64,000 nt of DNA from Eledone cirrhosa (Eukaryota): positions 34,720,001 through 34,784,000 of the forward strand of contig OZ024744.1 in assembly GCA_964016885.1 (NCBI GenBank), given 5' to 3'. The notes below the pieces were generated by a model, which worked only from the letters and a program-made list of their open reading frames with translations, had not been told where the DNA came from and made no database searches. How positions within the stretch are numbered: position 1 is the first letter of the stretch; each line of letters starts with the position of its first letter. Positions 7,575-47,652 of this stretch are shown piece by piece. Both the position numbers and the translations under genes were made by a program.

Positions 7575-9265
7575 ACAATGATATTAAATAAATGGAAACT
7601 ATATTTATAAAACCATATTTATTCTATTATATATATTTCAAGGGTATCAAAACTTTGGTACGCTTTCATCAGATAAAATACAAAGTTTGTTTTATAAATT
7701 TTGACATAACCAAGAAAAAATACCTTAACGGTTCAAGTTATCTTTGGACAGTGAAGGGATAAGAGAAGAAAAGTCAGATATTTCAAATGATTAAGATGAG
7801 TATGCAAATGAGGTTGAGGTATAGGGCTGAAAAAACGTTATTTATACGCTATGCAGAATTTAAATAATTAGGATATATGTATGTATGAGTAGGAAGAAAA
7901 GCTTATATTTACGTTAATTTAAAAGGAATTAACACTTTGGGGGAATGGTGGAATATGATTCAAGAATTTAAATTTATTTAGCTATATTATGAGTTATAAT
8001 ATTGTATATATAATCAATTAGATTATATGAAGAATTATGGTTGTAAGTATATTTTATCTTATTACATTACAATAGGTTATATGTATATAAATATCTATAT
8101 AGATTAATAATTGTACATGCATTAGTATTATATAAATAGAAATAATTTACAATTATTAGTTGTTTACATTTCTCATATGATTTACGAAGGAAGTTGATTT
8201 TGCATTTTACATAAAAAACAGGTGGTTCAAGTTGTTACAGGAGAACAATTTGTAGATTCGAATATTTTGTTCCAATATTGAAAATGTTTTCAGAATATTG
8301 TTAATTTAGGAAAGTTATATAGTTTATCGTACATATTATGTTTATGTTTGCACGATTGAAAAGGGAAAGATAACTCCAATCTTGTTTGTTAACCGTTAAA
8401 TTTGATGAGTGATTTACTCAGAAAATATATAGAGAAAATTATATATTATTTTGTGTGAGATTAATTATTTTAGTCGAAAGATGTGTAAAAGTTTGAAGAT
8501 CAAAAGGAGAGGAAAAAGGTAATGTGCATTTCGAAGAACTATCGTAAAGAGGATAAATTTTCAGAATGTCAATTAAAGATTATCAATCTACATGTAAAAA
8601 AATGTATTTAGTGGGGTATCATTAGGAAAATAATGTCAGAAGTAAAAAATATTTTAAAATATATATTTAAAAAATTGAAAAATTAAAAAATTAATGTCAA
8701 AAGGTAAAAATAGTAGAAATATTAAAAAATTACGAATGAAGATCATTTTTAAAAATTACATTTAAATTTTTAAAGAAAATAGGATCATTTTGGAGGTGTA
8801 TAAGATATAGTCAAGTGTAATGAATATCATAATTTAAAAATACTTCTGAAAGTGGAATTTTGGCGATGTCTGCAAGAAGAAAATAATTTTGGTTTAAGAT
8901 TTTTGACAGTTAATTATATTAAAAATTTCCTCGATACACAAGTTACAGAATCTTGAGAAAGTCATATTTTGGTATGCAGGTGCTTTCGAAATCGTTCCCC
9001 AAGATATTGAATAGTCTATATTGTTGTCTTTTAAGTTCCAAATTAAATGTGAAAGTGAAGTGGAAGAATTTTTATCGGATCTCCTAAATGTGTGTTTATG
9101 GTTATACCAGCGTTCTTTGAATTTTGTAGAAGTGGCACCGCTATAGTTAAATACTTTGTCTCTAGTTTTAACTGTGCATTTATAAATTACGTTTTTGTCT
9201 AAGCAATTATTTTGTAAAGAGCAGTTTGATTTAATTCTACAGTTACATTTTCTCTGTTTTATAAA
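7575..9265 (-). mobile_element. Penelope-like element 3' remnant (GIY-YIG + AT-rich 3' region) between two (TA)n tracts
   Basis: CNCRIKSNCSLQNNCLDKNVIYKC...YSGATSTKFKERWYNH...CNLCIEE is a degenerate GIY-YIG domain. (TA)n at 7497-7574 and 9265-9311. Confidence 0.8.
7623..7677 (-). ncRNA. Minimal type I hammerhead ribozyme motif
   Basis: Minus strand UUUAU-CUGAUGA-aagcguaccaaa..uuugauacccuu-GAAA-UAUAUA-UA-AUAGA. Stems I and II pair. Lies 3' of a PLE endonuclease remnant. Confidence 0.7.
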
Positions 9266-9315
9266 TATATATATATATATATATATATATATATATATAT
9301 ATATATATATATTAG

Positions 9316-9500
9316 TGAAGGTGCGTGGCTGAGTGATTAGAGAACTGGATTCGCAATCGGGAGGTTGTGAGTTAGATTCCTGGACCGGGCAAGACACTTT
9401 ATTTCATGTTGTTCCTTCTACCTGGAGTTGCGACTGATAGATAGTATTAGCAATTGGAAACATTGTTTCATTGGTCCGATTTGACGAAATTCGATCAACC
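9316..9500 (+). mobile_element. tRNA-derived SINE, second family (relatives 12190-12430, 16280-16590, 59440-59605)
   Basis: gaaggtgcgtggctgagtgattagag...gagttagattcc head. actttatttcatgttgttcc is shared with 16373-16393. Confidence 0.6.
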
Positions 9501-9611
9501 GTCGATATATATATATATATATATATATATATATATATTCACATAATACGCAAAATACATACATATATATATATATATATGTATATATATGTGTATGTGT
9601 GTGTGTTATGA

Positions 9612-9861
9612 CTAAGGCGGTATTTTGGAATATTATCTCATTTTATTAATCACGTCATTGCTGTTATACACATTTTATGGCCCCATTTATGTAATTAATA
9701 CGACCTCGTCAGACAGTTATTAAGCAATTGTTTATACTGTGATATGTTTCTAGCGGGTATTTATGATATTAAGCCCGGAAAACAATTGATGCCATTGAAA
9801 TGCGTATAACACCAATGATGCAATTGATAAAATGATATAAGATTCCAGGATACTGCCTTAT
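9612..9861. mobile_element. Degenerate MITE with ~70 bp imperfect terminal inverted repeats
   Basis: taaggcggtattttggaatattatctcattttattaatc... mirrored by ...attgataaaatgatataagattccaggatactgcctta. Confidence 0.6.
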
Positions 9862-10879
9862 TCTTCATTTTTATTCAAAAGCTTCGTCGTACAATCTGGA
9901 AACTATACTGCGTTGAGTGATAAAACCTGCACACACAAGTATTAGTTGATCGACACGTACAATCGGGAAACGTTTACCGTAATAAGTATCCAAAGCTTGA
10001 TAGATCACTCAGTTCGGAGAACAAGTGTGGTATACAGTTATTTATAACATTAACAGATCCGGCTTACCGGAGACACATGTTTCATTGATTTTGTCAATTT
10101 CTCAGATAGCTACTTTAGGGGGTTTAGTAGAGAAAGAGACAGAAAGTTAATTTAAACAAAAGTTGTTTTGAAAAATATATGGAAGTCTAAATACAATGAA
10201 AAACGCATAGTAAGGGGGTATATGAGTATGGAGGGAAGGAAGCTATCTTGTGTGGGTTTCTGGATATTATGATAGAGTTGTTTTTTTTTATATTAAAACG
10301 TTTTTAAAAGAGGACTCCTAAAAAGAGATAAGTGATGTTAAGTGGCTTTATACGACTGATCTAGAAATCTGGTTGGATTAGCAGAATCGTTAGAGAGGAG
10401 TATCATATAAAATATCCTGCACCATTTAGATACATCACTTACGTTGTTATTGTTGTTGTTATTGTTGTTGTCGTTGTTGTTACTGTTGTTGTTGTTGTTG
10501 TTCTTCTTCTTCTTCTTCTTCTTCTTCTTCTTCTTCTTCTTCTTCTTCTTCTTCTTCTTCTTCTTCTGCGCCCACTTATTCTTAGTTCGGTGGGGGGGGG
10601 GGGGGTTCTAACAATTGATCAGGCTGGATCTCCAAGCGTGACCACCCGAGCTCATGGATGTTACTCACTGTAGATACTATTTGAAACACTGTTTCAGTAT
10701 TTTTTGAAAATAGCGAACAGATTAATAACAGTTATTAGGAAGCTGATCCCTGTATTGACCTCCAAACGAAAAGCATTAATCTTTATTTGACAAATTTCAA
10801 TTGGACTATATATTGTTGCCATTTAAAAAAGAAAGAAAACGAAAAGAAAAGTGAAAGTAACAGAAAAAATTGCAGAATC

Positions 10880-11240
10880 TACACGCTAATCTAGGCGGTG
10901 TACTTCAGCTACGTGAAAGCATTGACACGGAGAACTGCCAGCAGTACCGGCTACATCAGCCTCAGCAACTCCACCTCACGAAACTCTTTCCTCAAGTGGA
11001 AAATGGCAGTTCGGAGTCCGAGATCTTGAAAGAGACCGATACGAAAATGAAGCGGTCAGTCAAGTCCCAATATTCGACCACATTCCTCCTCTCCTTCGCA
11101 TCACAAGCAGCAGTGCCCTGGTTTGTGGCCGAAGTGACAAGGTTGGGGGCGGAGAATGTATCGAAGCTCGTGGCATCACATATTAGAGATTTACCTCCTT
11201 TGGACGGGATGATGGTTTTCACGTCTGGATACTTACCGTG
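10880..11240 (-). mobile_element. CRE-clade non-LTR 3' (RLE) fragment
   Basis: YPDVKTIIPSKGGKSLICDATSFDTFSAPNL...AKERR...FIFVSV resembles the RPDGxTxxPWxxGxxLxWDAT RLE signature. Confidence 0.65.
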
Positions 11241-11299
11241 AAGCTTCAGTTGAAACACAGCGTGTCAATAAAAGGCACATAAAAGTTTACATTTATAGG

Positions 11300-11605
11300 T
11301 CTTCTTCTTCTTCTTCTTCTTCTTCTTCTTCTTCTTCTTCTTAGTACACTTATTCCTGAGAGGGGCGTGGAGGGCAGAGTCCTCAAAAAATACCCCCAGC
11401 GGGTCCTGTCAGAAGCAACAGTCGCCAACTGATCTGGCTGGATTCCCAAGCGGGACCAGCGAAACTTATTGATATTATCCAACAATCTTGCTCAGGGTCT
11501 ATCTCTGGGTCTCCTGCCGGCTGGTTTTGCTCCTAAAATCTCTCCAGTGATTCTTTCCTGAGACATTCTAACCACATGCCCGTTGTATCGAAGCTGCGAT
11601 CGCTT
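11300..11605 (-). mobile_element. RTE LINE 3' fragment with (AAG)n tail. Relatives at ~10500-10670 and 40030-40550 (+)
   Basis: RSQLRYNGHVVRMSQER...AGRRPRDRP is the typical RTE C-terminus. Confidence 0.75.
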
Positions 11606-46530: not shown

Positions 46531-46930
46531 AGATATATATACATACATATATATATAAATATACATACATATATATACATACATATATATACATACATAT
46601 ATATTCTTACATATATATAAACCTATATATATACACATACATATATATATAGATACATATATATACATACATATATATATATATATACATATATATATAT
46701 ACATATTTCGTTTCTGAATTTGTTTAGCAAGATTCTTTATCTGAAATCGTGTGTTGAAACCGATATTGTTATACTTTGGGAGGGTCATGCTGCCAATAAG
46801 AAACACACGCACCAGTTGCTTTCACTTCAATTTATTATATATTTATAAATTTATAAATTTACAAATTTACAAACCCATAAATTTCTGGTTGGTTGGTTGG
46901 TTCCACAACCAGATAGTTGTTTATATATAT

Positions 46931-46975
46931 AGTCATAGTCCTTTCGTCACACACTCTGTGACCTCTTCAGTGACT
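46931..46975 (-). ncRNA. Hammerhead motif, identical to 19154-19198
   Basis: Reverse complement agtcatagtcctttcgtcacacactctgtgacctcttcagtgact. Confidence 0.8.
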
Positions 46976-47096
46976 GGGGATTCCTTTCTTCGTTTCTGTG
47001 CCTTTCCTTTCTTCTATCCTACGCCATTTTGTTTCTGAAACAAAATGGCGTAGGATAGAAGAAAGGAAAGGCACAGAAACGAAGAAAGGAATCCCC

Positions 47097-47141
47097 AGTC
47101 ACTGAAGAGGTCACAGAGTGTGTGACGAAAGGACTATGACT
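47097..47141 (+). ncRNA. Hammerhead motif, identical to 19154-19198
   Basis: agtcactgaagaggtcacagagtgtgtgacgaaaggactatgact. Confidence 0.8.
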
Positions 47142-47333
47142 ATATACATATATATACACACATATATATACATACATATATACATATACATACATATATA
47201 TATATACATACATATATATATATATATATATATATATATATATATATATATATATATATATATATATATATATATATATATAATAATGAAATGACAGGAG
47301 GCTGGATTTGTGTAAATCCTTGAAAGGTTTATT

Positions 47334-47391
47334 ATACTATGATCATTTCAATGACCGGGTTCCGTATGAATCCGGTGATATCATCAGGTAT
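47334..47391 (-). ncRNA. Hammerhead-like motif (left arm)
   Basis: AUAC-CUGAUGA-uaucaccgg...ccggucauu-GAAA-UGAUCA-UA-GUAU. First stem II pair is a non-canonical U.U. Confidence 0.65.
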
Positions 47392-47594
47392 TCGAAATAT
47401 AATACGTGAATGTAATAGGTAAAATCCATGGGGCTGAAAATCGAGACCCGAGGGCGACCACTATTCTGTTCCTTCAACCTCAGCCGGTCGCCCTGGAACC
47501 GGCTGAGGTTGAAGGAACAGAATAGCGGTCGCCCTCGGGTCTCGATTTTCAGCCCCATGGATTTTACCTATTACATTCACGTATTATATTTCGA

Positions 47595-47652
47595 ATACCT
47601 GATGATATCACCGGATTCATACGGAACCAGGTCATTGAAATGATCATAGTAT
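47595..47652 (+). ncRNA. Hammerhead-like motif (right arm)
   Basis: atac-ctgatga-tatcaccgg...caggtcatt-gaaa-tgatca-ta-gtat. Confidence 0.62.

Follow-up and report, generated by a model that had tools for sequence, protein, structure and literature searches.

Within the 64,000-nucleotide stretch of the Eledone cirrhosa genome analysed here (the window), hammerhead motifs occur near (TA)n tracts, and the following reading of them is highly probable in our judgement. Several retroelement insertions into (TA)n carry minimal type I hammerhead folds at the 3' end, one of them directly behind the RT/endonuclease frame of a Penelope-like element (PLE); the folds are likely ribozymes of PLE pseudo-LTRs, predicted to cut only as dimers in a tandem source RNA and likely inactive as the copies now present. 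The system has been published as the pseudo-LTR hammerhead of PLEs (Cervera 2014; Craig 2021), and the window adds new members only. Minimal hammerheads in pseudo-LTRs are mostly lone, with some opposite-strand pairs 100-700 bp apart, and those of PLEs show no activity as monomers and little as dimers (PMC4209133). PLEs leave inverted, 5'-truncated copies and are biased towards (TA)n (PMC8557442). Cutting is protein-assisted and dispensable for insertion, and unprocessed RNA is the main template (PMC11167929).

All eight motifs listed in a sequence-only reading of this DNA are real and correctly placed, each having the order stem I-CUGANGA-stem II-GAAA-short loop-UA-stem I (8/8). A descriptor run on both strands (CUGANGA core, at least 4 Watson-Crick pairs in stem I, stem II score of at least 4) picks exactly these loci out of 31 CUGANGA sites, whereas 100 block-wise dinucleotide shuffles give a mean of 0.01 loci and a maximum of 1. 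An earlier, stricter stem II rule recovered 6/8 motifs, the U.U at 10.1/11.1 having excluded 47334 and 47595. The Rfam hammerhead search proposed as a check returned no match in the whole window at E<=1, nor at E<=10 for short stretches around 43034 and 19154. This absence and the modest monomer folding z-scores (-3.15 to +0.03) would fit chance matches in AT-rich repetitive DNA, a reading whose probability is practically nil: it is refuted by the shuffle test, the stems covary, and hammerheads sit behind PLE frames both here and in related loci.

The eight motifs represent only six insertions, because 46931/47097 and 47334/47595 are arms of single fold-backs (Table 1). The division into four sequence families holds for the ribozymes, but there may be five families of elements, since 29990 and 43034 have only the ribozyme in common (85% over 66 nt) and differ in their flanks. 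Three decayed copies, at 28110, 9655 and 9751, had been overlooked. Five motifs carry the self-complementary hexamer ascribed to them, UAUAUA at 7623, 29990 and 43034 and UGAUCA at 47334 and 47595; loop III of the remaining three is GGAC, which is not palindromic in the strict sense. An extra nucleotide after A9 and G10.1-C11.1 are both present in family B (3/8 motifs). Family C lacks the extra base but shares the G-C pair; at 10.1/11.1 the bases are A-U in family A and U.U in family D.

Table 1. Hammerhead motifs and retroelement features in the window (dot, strand not assigned).
Feature	Position	Strand	Details
Family A hammerhead	7620..7680	-	stem I up to 8 bp, A10.1-U11.1, C.C mismatch, loop III UAUAUA
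Hydra-type PLE endonuclease remnant	8894..9259	-	CxCX5C, C-terminal CxxC; motifs compared by eye with Craig 2021
Old inverted pair	9600..9860	.	82.5% over 63 nt; decayed hammerheads 9655-9722(-), 9751-9818(+)
Family B 5'-truncated PLE	17068..19420	+	from sequence; 3' end common to two other copies
Truncated RT + CX4CxxC linker + GIY-YIG frame	17069..18937	+	622 codons; translation, Pfam, alignment
Family B intact minimal hammerhead	19154..19198	+	extra G, G10.1-C11.1, loop III GGAC
Neptune-type PLE remnant, internal inversion	27228..28019	linker +, GIY-YIG -	Pfam GIY-YIG E 4e-8
Degenerate hammerhead	28110..28183	+	CUGGUGA core, U.U, C.C, 5-nt loop III
Family C hammerhead	29990..30045	-	in ~165-nt end piece between TA-rich repeats
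Long non-coding fold-back	42890..45730	.	arms 92-94% identical; 42890 end approximate
Family C hammerhead	43034..43088	-	near 3' end of main arm of 42890..45730; G10.1-C11.1, C.C mismatch, loop III UAUAUA
Family B fold-back insertion	46707..47146		main arm (-) ~47037 to 46707; short arm (+) 47038-47146
Family B intact hammerhead, main arm	46931..46975	-	descriptor
Family B intact hammerhead, short fold-back arm	47097..47141	+	descriptor
Family D fold-back insertion between (TA)n runs	47283..47846		main arm (+) 47498-47846; short arm (-) 47488 to 47283
Family D hammerhead, short arm	47334..47391	-	U10.1.U11.1, C.C mismatch, loop III UGAUCA
Family D hammerhead, main arm	47595..47652	+	one stem II substitution vs 47334
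Family B fold-back copy	59754..60003	.	truncated downstream of hammerhead; 3' end as in other two

Stem covariation is evident among the six aligned long-loop motifs, in which 12/16 pairs change on both sides and 92.6% of cells pair, in a structure hand-drawn from the same six sequences, two rows being arms of one insertion. The observed value is reached by 0/500 shuffles, and slid controls give at most 57% pairing. Family B is uninformative in this respect because its copies are identical. A C.C mismatch occupies the fourth position of stem II in 6/6 of the aligned motifs. The suggestion that the palindromic loops allow cutting as dimers is supported in part by predicted folding, along with the literature. 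The minimum-energy fold of the 43034 monomer is the hammerhead, and its unconstrained co-fold is predicted to be a textbook active dimer, in which stems I are exchanged and helix III is intermolecular with 8 bp (-42.4 vs -35.2 kcal/mol for two monomers); the 29990 co-fold has the same intermolecular helix III, so that this motif forms the predicted dimer in part. For the other four motifs tested (7623, 19154, 47334 and 47595) the hammerhead form is neither the monomer nor the co-fold minimum, though the forced folds of 7623, 47334 and 47595 are understated because inner stem II pairs were left out.

The assignment to PLEs is borne out by the frame upstream of 19154, by PLE-like insertion anatomy and by the covariation. 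The family B element, flanked by (TA)n runs at 16976-17067 and 19421-19510 (TRF), encodes a PLE-type RT and then a GIY-YIG domain in a single frame, with Pfam matches (RVT_1 E 7e-5, GIY-YIG E 3e-4) both below the curated cut-off and 257 relatives at E<=1e-30. Its linker cysteines are C496/C501/C504 and its CCHH motif is U523/C528/H566/H571. The frame ends 217 nt upstream of the 19154 motif, in which the cut is predicted after 19193. Among 12 related loci, 10 have a tail past the endonuclease match; a minimal hammerhead lies 99-121 nt into the tail in 4/10 (loops UAUA, UA, GC and AU), and 6/10 tails have no hammerhead, two of these being only 33 and 147 nt long. The 46707..47146 insertion is 96.7% identical to the 19154 copy over 331 nt and includes a 99.5% palindrome of 221 nt (46926-47146). 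5' truncation, inverted copies and the (TA)n target are all present in family B. A direct-repeat pair flanking a frame (two pseudo-LTRs) is absent from the window, as expected because the copies are truncated. Against the assignment, direct joining to a PLE frame is confined to family B, and 7623 lies 1.2 kb from a Hydra-type remnant, yet Hydra hammerheads (Craig 2021 File S2) differ in helix III.

The published minimal hammerheads of metazoan PLE pseudo-LTRs (Cervera & De la Pena 2014, PMC4209133) have the same type I core, a helix I of 4-5 bp and a long helix II, and likewise lack a stable helix III and occur as lone 3' copies and opposite-strand pairs. Family B matches their consensus in both the extra nucleotide and G10.1-C11.1, whereas families A, C and D are without the extra nucleotide in the register used. 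The family D design (6-nt loop III palindrome, U.U at the helix II base, UA cut site) is that of the Drosophila willistoni Penelope hammerhead in the extracted text of Cervera 2014 Fig. S3. In that same text, the stem II fourth-position C.C is not evident in the rows of PLE variants with a palindromic helix III. The family B loop III, A-GGAC-U, forms no Watson-Crick palindrome, and GGAC is not among the aligned motifs in the extracted text of Fig. S3 (PMC4209133).

For this loop we tentatively propose a hidden palindrome. The AGGACU loops of two family B RNAs may pair through a tandem of two G.A pairs, with A-U and G-C as the flanking pairs, to give a dimeric hammerhead; in the monomer, GGACU would capture the 5' strand of stem I, which would be the off state. 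The long-loop families would form a second structural class, marked by the invariant C.C of stem II. The proposal as a whole is possible rather than probable. By registered-dimer energy GGAC is placed 19th of 256 four-base loops, above the UAUA loop of a related element, and no other loop that depends on non-standard pairs ranks higher; the minimum-energy fold of the family B monomer has the off-register GGACU pairing.

The sole stop in the 622 codons is a TGA (18635-18637), which stands where the CCHH motif has its first Cys. It is seen in one family B copy, distant relatives have Cys, and it is probably a nonsense mutation of an invariant cysteine. Alternatively, family B could encode a selenoprotein in which this TGA is read as selenocysteine, as in clam Naiad elements. 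Cys stands at this position in 108/114 aligned relatives (6 gaps), Cys codons account for just 13/247 one-step routes to a stop, and clam Naiads have UGA at the same Cys (PMC8557442). However, the 217-nt A/C-rich 3' UTR and the sequence downstream hold no SECIS-like fold, 18940-19250 has no Rfam SECIS match at E<=10, the relatives show no pile-up of ends at the site, and family B has a single UGA, as against 3-4 and a SECIS in the Naiad selenoproteins. Among the related loci that span the site, a Cys codon is present in 8/10 and TGA in 0/10, but these codons do not speak for family B itself because such relatives are at most ~55% identical. Selenocysteine is considered very unlikely. Naiad-type PLEs have an N-terminal endonuclease and no canonical hammerhead, whereas family B has a C-terminal endonuclease and a hammerhead; that family B should be the first PLE to combine a hammerhead, a C-terminal endonuclease and selenocysteine has an equally slim chance, and is much less likely than the hidden palindrome.

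In its RT, CX2-5CxxC linker and GIY-YIG with CCHH, family B resembles the Neptune/Nematis-type PLEs with a C-terminal endonuclease, which also target (TA)n and leave inverted 5'-truncated copies (Craig et al. 2021, PMC8557442). By eye rather than from a tree, its short linker is nearer Nematis, and the 27228 piece has a long Neptune-type spacer. The degenerate 28110 hammerhead, ~50 nt from (TA)n, adjoins that piece, and its association with a PLE is one of proximity only. The family A hammerhead (7623) lies ~50 nt from (AT)39 and has the weakest predicted fold; the 8894..9259 remnant is 1.2 kb upstream of it, a mere proximity that leaves the link uncertain. This remnant shares CxCX5C and the C-terminal CxxC with Hydra-clade PLEs, including Hydra-1_Obim of Octopus bimaculoides (Craig et al. 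2021), which as here insert in (TA)n and carry a hammerhead near the 3' end. The listed Hydra-1_Obim hammerhead matches 0/8 motifs, and helix III in this clade is mostly 3-4 bp with a 1-3 nt loop. A more decayed Hydra-type match is located at 60858.

No coding remnant was found for families C and D. The long fold-back 42890..45730 contains internal 99-bp and ~220-bp repeats and a ~100-bp repeat inserted in one arm, is unmatched in tblastn against 165 PLE proteins and against the other EN fragments of the window, and is likely a non-autonomous or 3'-only PLE-type copy. The family D insertion includes a 97.4% palindrome of 421 nt (47283-47703). It is conceivable, though rather doubtful, that the long-loop families (A, C, D and 28110) are monomers of non-autonomous, retrozyme-like RNAs that borrow PLE machinery. 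The 1.55-kb arm of 43034 and the surroundings of 29990 and 47595 lack a coding remnant, 29990 and 43034 share the ribozyme without the flanks, and animal retrozymes have been described as non-autonomous derivatives of PLE pseudo-LTRs, many of them monomers (bioRxiv 10.64898/2026.07.22.740005). Animal non-LTR retrozymes are likewise non-coding, PLE-related and of type I (PMC7229834; Li, Clavereau & Pollet 2026 preprint). On the other hand, retrozymes are defined by 170-400-nt tandem units (PMC7229834) and no head-to-tail array here holds a hammerhead, fold-backs being found instead; 5' truncation alone accounts for the missing frame. Such RNAs would share their mechanism with the PLE pseudo-LTR reading and differ in autonomy only.

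As claimed earlier, the motifs lie close to (TA)n: a (TA)>=5 run is found 5-228 nt downstream of the cut site in 9/9 motifs (the eight and 28110), compared with 19% when 20,000 positions are drawn at random. The 3' ends of three family B insertions coincide to the base, ~227 nt beyond the cut site, and several copies have an inverted duplicate whose short arm ends at a short TA match to the target (TA microhomology). The hammerheads may act and spread via the following steps. A tandem source element would be transcribed across two pseudo-LTRs, bringing two hammerheads together. Their self-complementary loops would pair into a common helix III, probably with assistance from the element's protein. 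The endonuclease would nick (TA)n, and reverse transcription would begin at a fixed site downstream of the ribozyme. The 5'-truncated copies with inverted duplicates seen here may have been made by fold-back or template switch. Since the ribozyme and sequence downstream of it are retained in every copy, the template was presumably uncut or re-ligated RNA; cutting would thus not set the insertion end, and may trim or circularise the precursor RNA.

The cluster is a set of independent insertions into (TA)n and not a functional unit, and the close pairs face opposite ways. As opposite-strand arms, 46931/47097 and 47334/47595 cannot form cis dimers, and RNA transcribed through them would form hairpins of 109 bp and 205 bp that bury the ribozyme. 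The lone or fold-back copies are likely inactive at these sites. The last TRP-channel exon found in the window is bounded by a GT donor at 33378, so that 43034-47652 is likely intronic. Co-option of these copies to cut or shape the TRP-channel pre-mRNA would accord with this location and with two motifs (47097 and 47595) on the gene's strand. It is nevertheless highly improbable: both sense copies lie within the near-perfect 109 and 205 bp hairpins and lack a nearby same-strand partner of their own family, the repeats are young (97-99% identical to other copies), and minimal monomers are inactive in vitro (PMC4209133).

Rfam misses these hammerheads entirely, and 64 kb of a repeat-rich animal genome can contain 8 intact copies along with 3 decayed ones, albeit in a selected window. 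At the density of this selected window, a genome-wide total could equal or surpass the 126,247 type I motifs reported in axolotl. The uncut-RNA insertion template known from in vitro work receives genomic support from the fixed 3' end, which lies ~227 nt beyond the cut site. If GGAC does dimerise via G.A pairs, searches based on palindromes would miss a class of dimeric hammerheads.

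The eight hammerhead motifs are a real and well-supported feature of the window, and their kind had been correctly named in the sequence-only reading. Inspection of the window sequence confirmed coordinates and layout for all eight. A custom minimal-hammerhead descriptor (CUGANGA, a scored stem II, GAAA, a loop of at most 12 nt, UH, and at least 4 Watson-Crick pairs in stem I) returns the same eight motifs and no others among the 31 CUGANGA sites of the window, against a mean of 0.01 and a maximum of 1 in 100 block-wise dinucleotide shuffles; an earlier, stricter version recovered 6 of the 8. 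Permitting one core mismatch yields one extra motif, 28110-28183(+), at a null mean of 0.17. Searching with a covariance model trained on six of the motifs brings in a further, decayed pair in inverted orientation at 9655-9722(-) and 9751-9818(+), with E-values of 4e-4 and 0.23 that are rough, the second being that of a whole-window search. The Rfam search proposed along with the original claim did not recover the motifs: it gave 143 matches in the window at E<=1, none of them a hammerhead and nearly all microRNA models placed on microsatellites and fold-backs.

Covariation was assessed over the six motifs of the long-loop kind, those of families A, C, and D plus 28110. On a structure drawn by hand, and with two of the six rows coming from one insertion, two-sided changes occur in 12 of 16 pairs and 92.6% of cells are paired; none of 500 shuffles reaches the observed value, and slid controls stay at or below 57%. 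A C.C mismatch at the fourth position of stem II is invariant in all six rows. At its base, stem II has G-C, A-U or U.U, and U.U at this place is also described for an axolotl hammerhead (PMC7229834) and in many rows of Hydra hammerheads (PMC8557442). In free co-folding, 43034 reaches the active dimer and 29990 an intermolecular helix III; 7623, 19154, 47334, and 47595 take other folds. Duplexes of 5'-GGAC-3' form stable tandem G.A pairs. In family B, whose loop III is GGAC, GGACU is paired to the 5' strand of stem I in the minimum-energy monomer (-12.0 kcal/mol, the hammerhead form being at -10.7 kcal/mol); the registered AGGACU dimer with tandem G.A reaches -1.7 kcal/mol, ranking 19th of 256 four-base loops. 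A literature search for hammerhead dimers with tandem G-A and GGAC in stem III found none.

The count of eight stands for motifs but not for insertions, of which there are only six, because two pairs are the arms of single palindromes: 46931 and 47097 belong to one of 221 nt (99.5% identity), and 47334 and 47595 to one of 421 nt (97.4%). In both, a long arm that reaches (TA)n is accompanied by a short one in inverted orientation. Cis-dimers within these close pairs are excluded, as the members lie on opposite strands. Motif 43034 is located near the long-arm end of a 2.8-kb fold-back (arms 92-94% identical) in which no PLE coding remnant was found. In four fold-backs the short arm stops where the element matches the target TA by a few bases, and in family B all three of the long arms (19420, 46707, and 60003) end at an identical base, about 227 nt beyond the predicted cut. 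The claimed closeness to (TA)n is borne out: a TA run is found within 228 nt downstream of 9 of 9 motifs, which represent seven insertions and are not all independent, vs 19% of random positions. Smaller pieces also occur. A 29-nt inverted family B scrap at 19507-19535 shares its terminal TA microhomology with the short arm of 59754, a family B copy without the hammerhead. A piece adjoining (TA)n at 21545-21680, likewise without a hammerhead, resembles the 3' end of the 43034 arm (84% over 82 nt) and an internal repeat of that arm (80% over 41 nt).

Family B is the family with a coding carrier. The 19154 motif lies 217 nt 3' of a frame of 622 codons that has RT and GIY-YIG domains (weak Pfam matches), a CX4CxxC linker, and a CCHH motif, and this frame has 257 protein relatives at E<=1e-30. 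Among 12 related loci, two without the endonuclease end were set aside and ten tails compared. A minimal hammerhead is present 99-121 nt into the tail in four of the ten, with palindromic loops (UA, GC, AU, and UAUA) and, in two of the four, a U3-A8 core variant; the hammerhead is absent from the other six tails, two of which are short. At locus L001 the variant lies roughly 110 nt beyond the protein match and combines the U3-A8 core with a UAUA loop and C at position 9; at L004 the U3-A8 core goes with a GC loop. The exact family B motif gave no match in prokaryotic genomes. Viral contigs (1 of 64 parts), scanned with a loose pattern, yielded 120 loci, mostly chance matches; in the two that satisfy the descriptor, stem III is stable and there is no palindrome of six bases.

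The family B frame is interrupted by a single stop codon, a TGA (18635-18637) at a Cys of the GIY-YIG CCHH motif, a position that is Cys in 108 of 114 aligned relatives and a gap in the other six. Selenocysteine is described at this Cys position in clam Naiads (PMC8557442), and a chance nonsense change would hit a Cys codon by only 13 of 247 routes. It is nevertheless very improbable that this TGA is read as selenocysteine: no SECIS element is found in the 3' UTR or downstream, and none is matched by Rfam in 18940-19250; related loci covering the codon carry Cys in 8 of 10 cases and TGA in none; and protein ends of the relatives do not pile up at this position. Three proteins (46-52%) came from a search aimed at close relatives of shorter length, and a further family B copy spanning the TGA was not found.

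Other PLE remnants and genes of the window are collected in the table. The two Hydra-type remnants are 68% identical in DNA over 221 nt, and no hammerhead was found after the one at 60858. The inversion in the Neptune-type piece is as in twin priming. Motifs 7623 and 28110 are tied to nearby PLE remnants by proximity only.

Coding remnants and genes located in the window
Feature	Position	Strand	Basis
Hydra-type endonuclease remnant	8894-9259	-	motifs compared by eye with published descriptions
Neptune-type PLE piece	27228-28019		motifs compared by eye; inverted exactly between linker and endonuclease
tRNA-Ser(GGA)-like gene	28366-28438	-	ARAGORN
tRNA-Ser(GGA)-like gene	29033-29105	+	ARAGORN
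TRP-channel large first coding exon	32452-33378	+	protein relatives; ends at GT donor
Hydra-type endonuclease remnant	60858-61667	-	motifs compared by eye with published descriptions
tRNA-Ser(GGA)-like gene	61959-62031	-	ARAGORN

The tRNA-like genes are borne by a repeat present at 28263-29272 and 61813-62076 (85% identity between the two loci). This repeat abuts (TA)n at its end and, like the PLE copies, occurs as nested fold-backs; it may be a PLE-mobilised element. One inverted arm (28614-28795 vs 28208-28390) runs beyond the element end, through the interrupted (TA)n and 22 flank bases; the inclusion of flank suggests target DNA, and not element RNA, as the template for the arm. The window also contains a 48-bp minisatellite (55133-56288; 24 copies at 93%) and a dispersed repeat of roughly 190 bp (7060-7257 and copies, about eight or more), which may be of a SINE type.

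The window is animal DNA with many microsatellites and broken RT frames, a repeat landscape of a kind that suggests an octopus. For the TRP-channel exon, the best named relatives of near-full coverage are molluscan (78%), and two further proteins are 96% identical. This exon terminates in a GT donor, and within the window no further exon was found downstream, so motif 43034 and the four after it probably lie in an intron. The intron that follows the exon is likely over 30 kb.

The eight motifs belong to the system described by Cervera & De la Pena 2014 (PMC4209133). Craig 2021 gives hammerheads for Hydra PLEs, an octopus family among them; the octopus hammerhead, as described there, matches none of the eight (PMC8557442). 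A squid genome paper gives 235 Rfam hammerhead loci (PMC6962438), and literature searches turned up no survey of octopus hammerheads, judged by titles and abstracts. Apparently new, as far as the literature searched goes, are the families themselves, the C.C mismatch in stem II, and the loop GGAC; GGAC or C.C variants may be described in Lunse et al. 2016 or its supplements.

Directly supported are the motifs and their covariation, the PLE frame, the truncated and fold-back copies, the fixed 3' end, and the (TA)n targets. From these we propose that the two pseudo-LTR hammerheads of a tandem source element would pair via loop III and cleave on the 3' side of UA, probably assisted by protein. 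Reverse transcription would be primed at nicked (TA)n, starting from a fixed internal site. The template RNA would be uncut or re-ligated, because every copy keeps sequence on either side of the cut. Such a template agrees with work on an anole PLE, in which the hammerhead is described as requiring the protein and insertion as proceeding without the hammerhead (PMC11167929), and it also fits the circular-RNA model (PMC4209133). As for the window copies, they are lone or on opposite strands, and the two on the TRP strand, 47097 and 47595, would sit in hairpins of 109 bp and 205 bp. Therefore, the copies in the window are likely inert.
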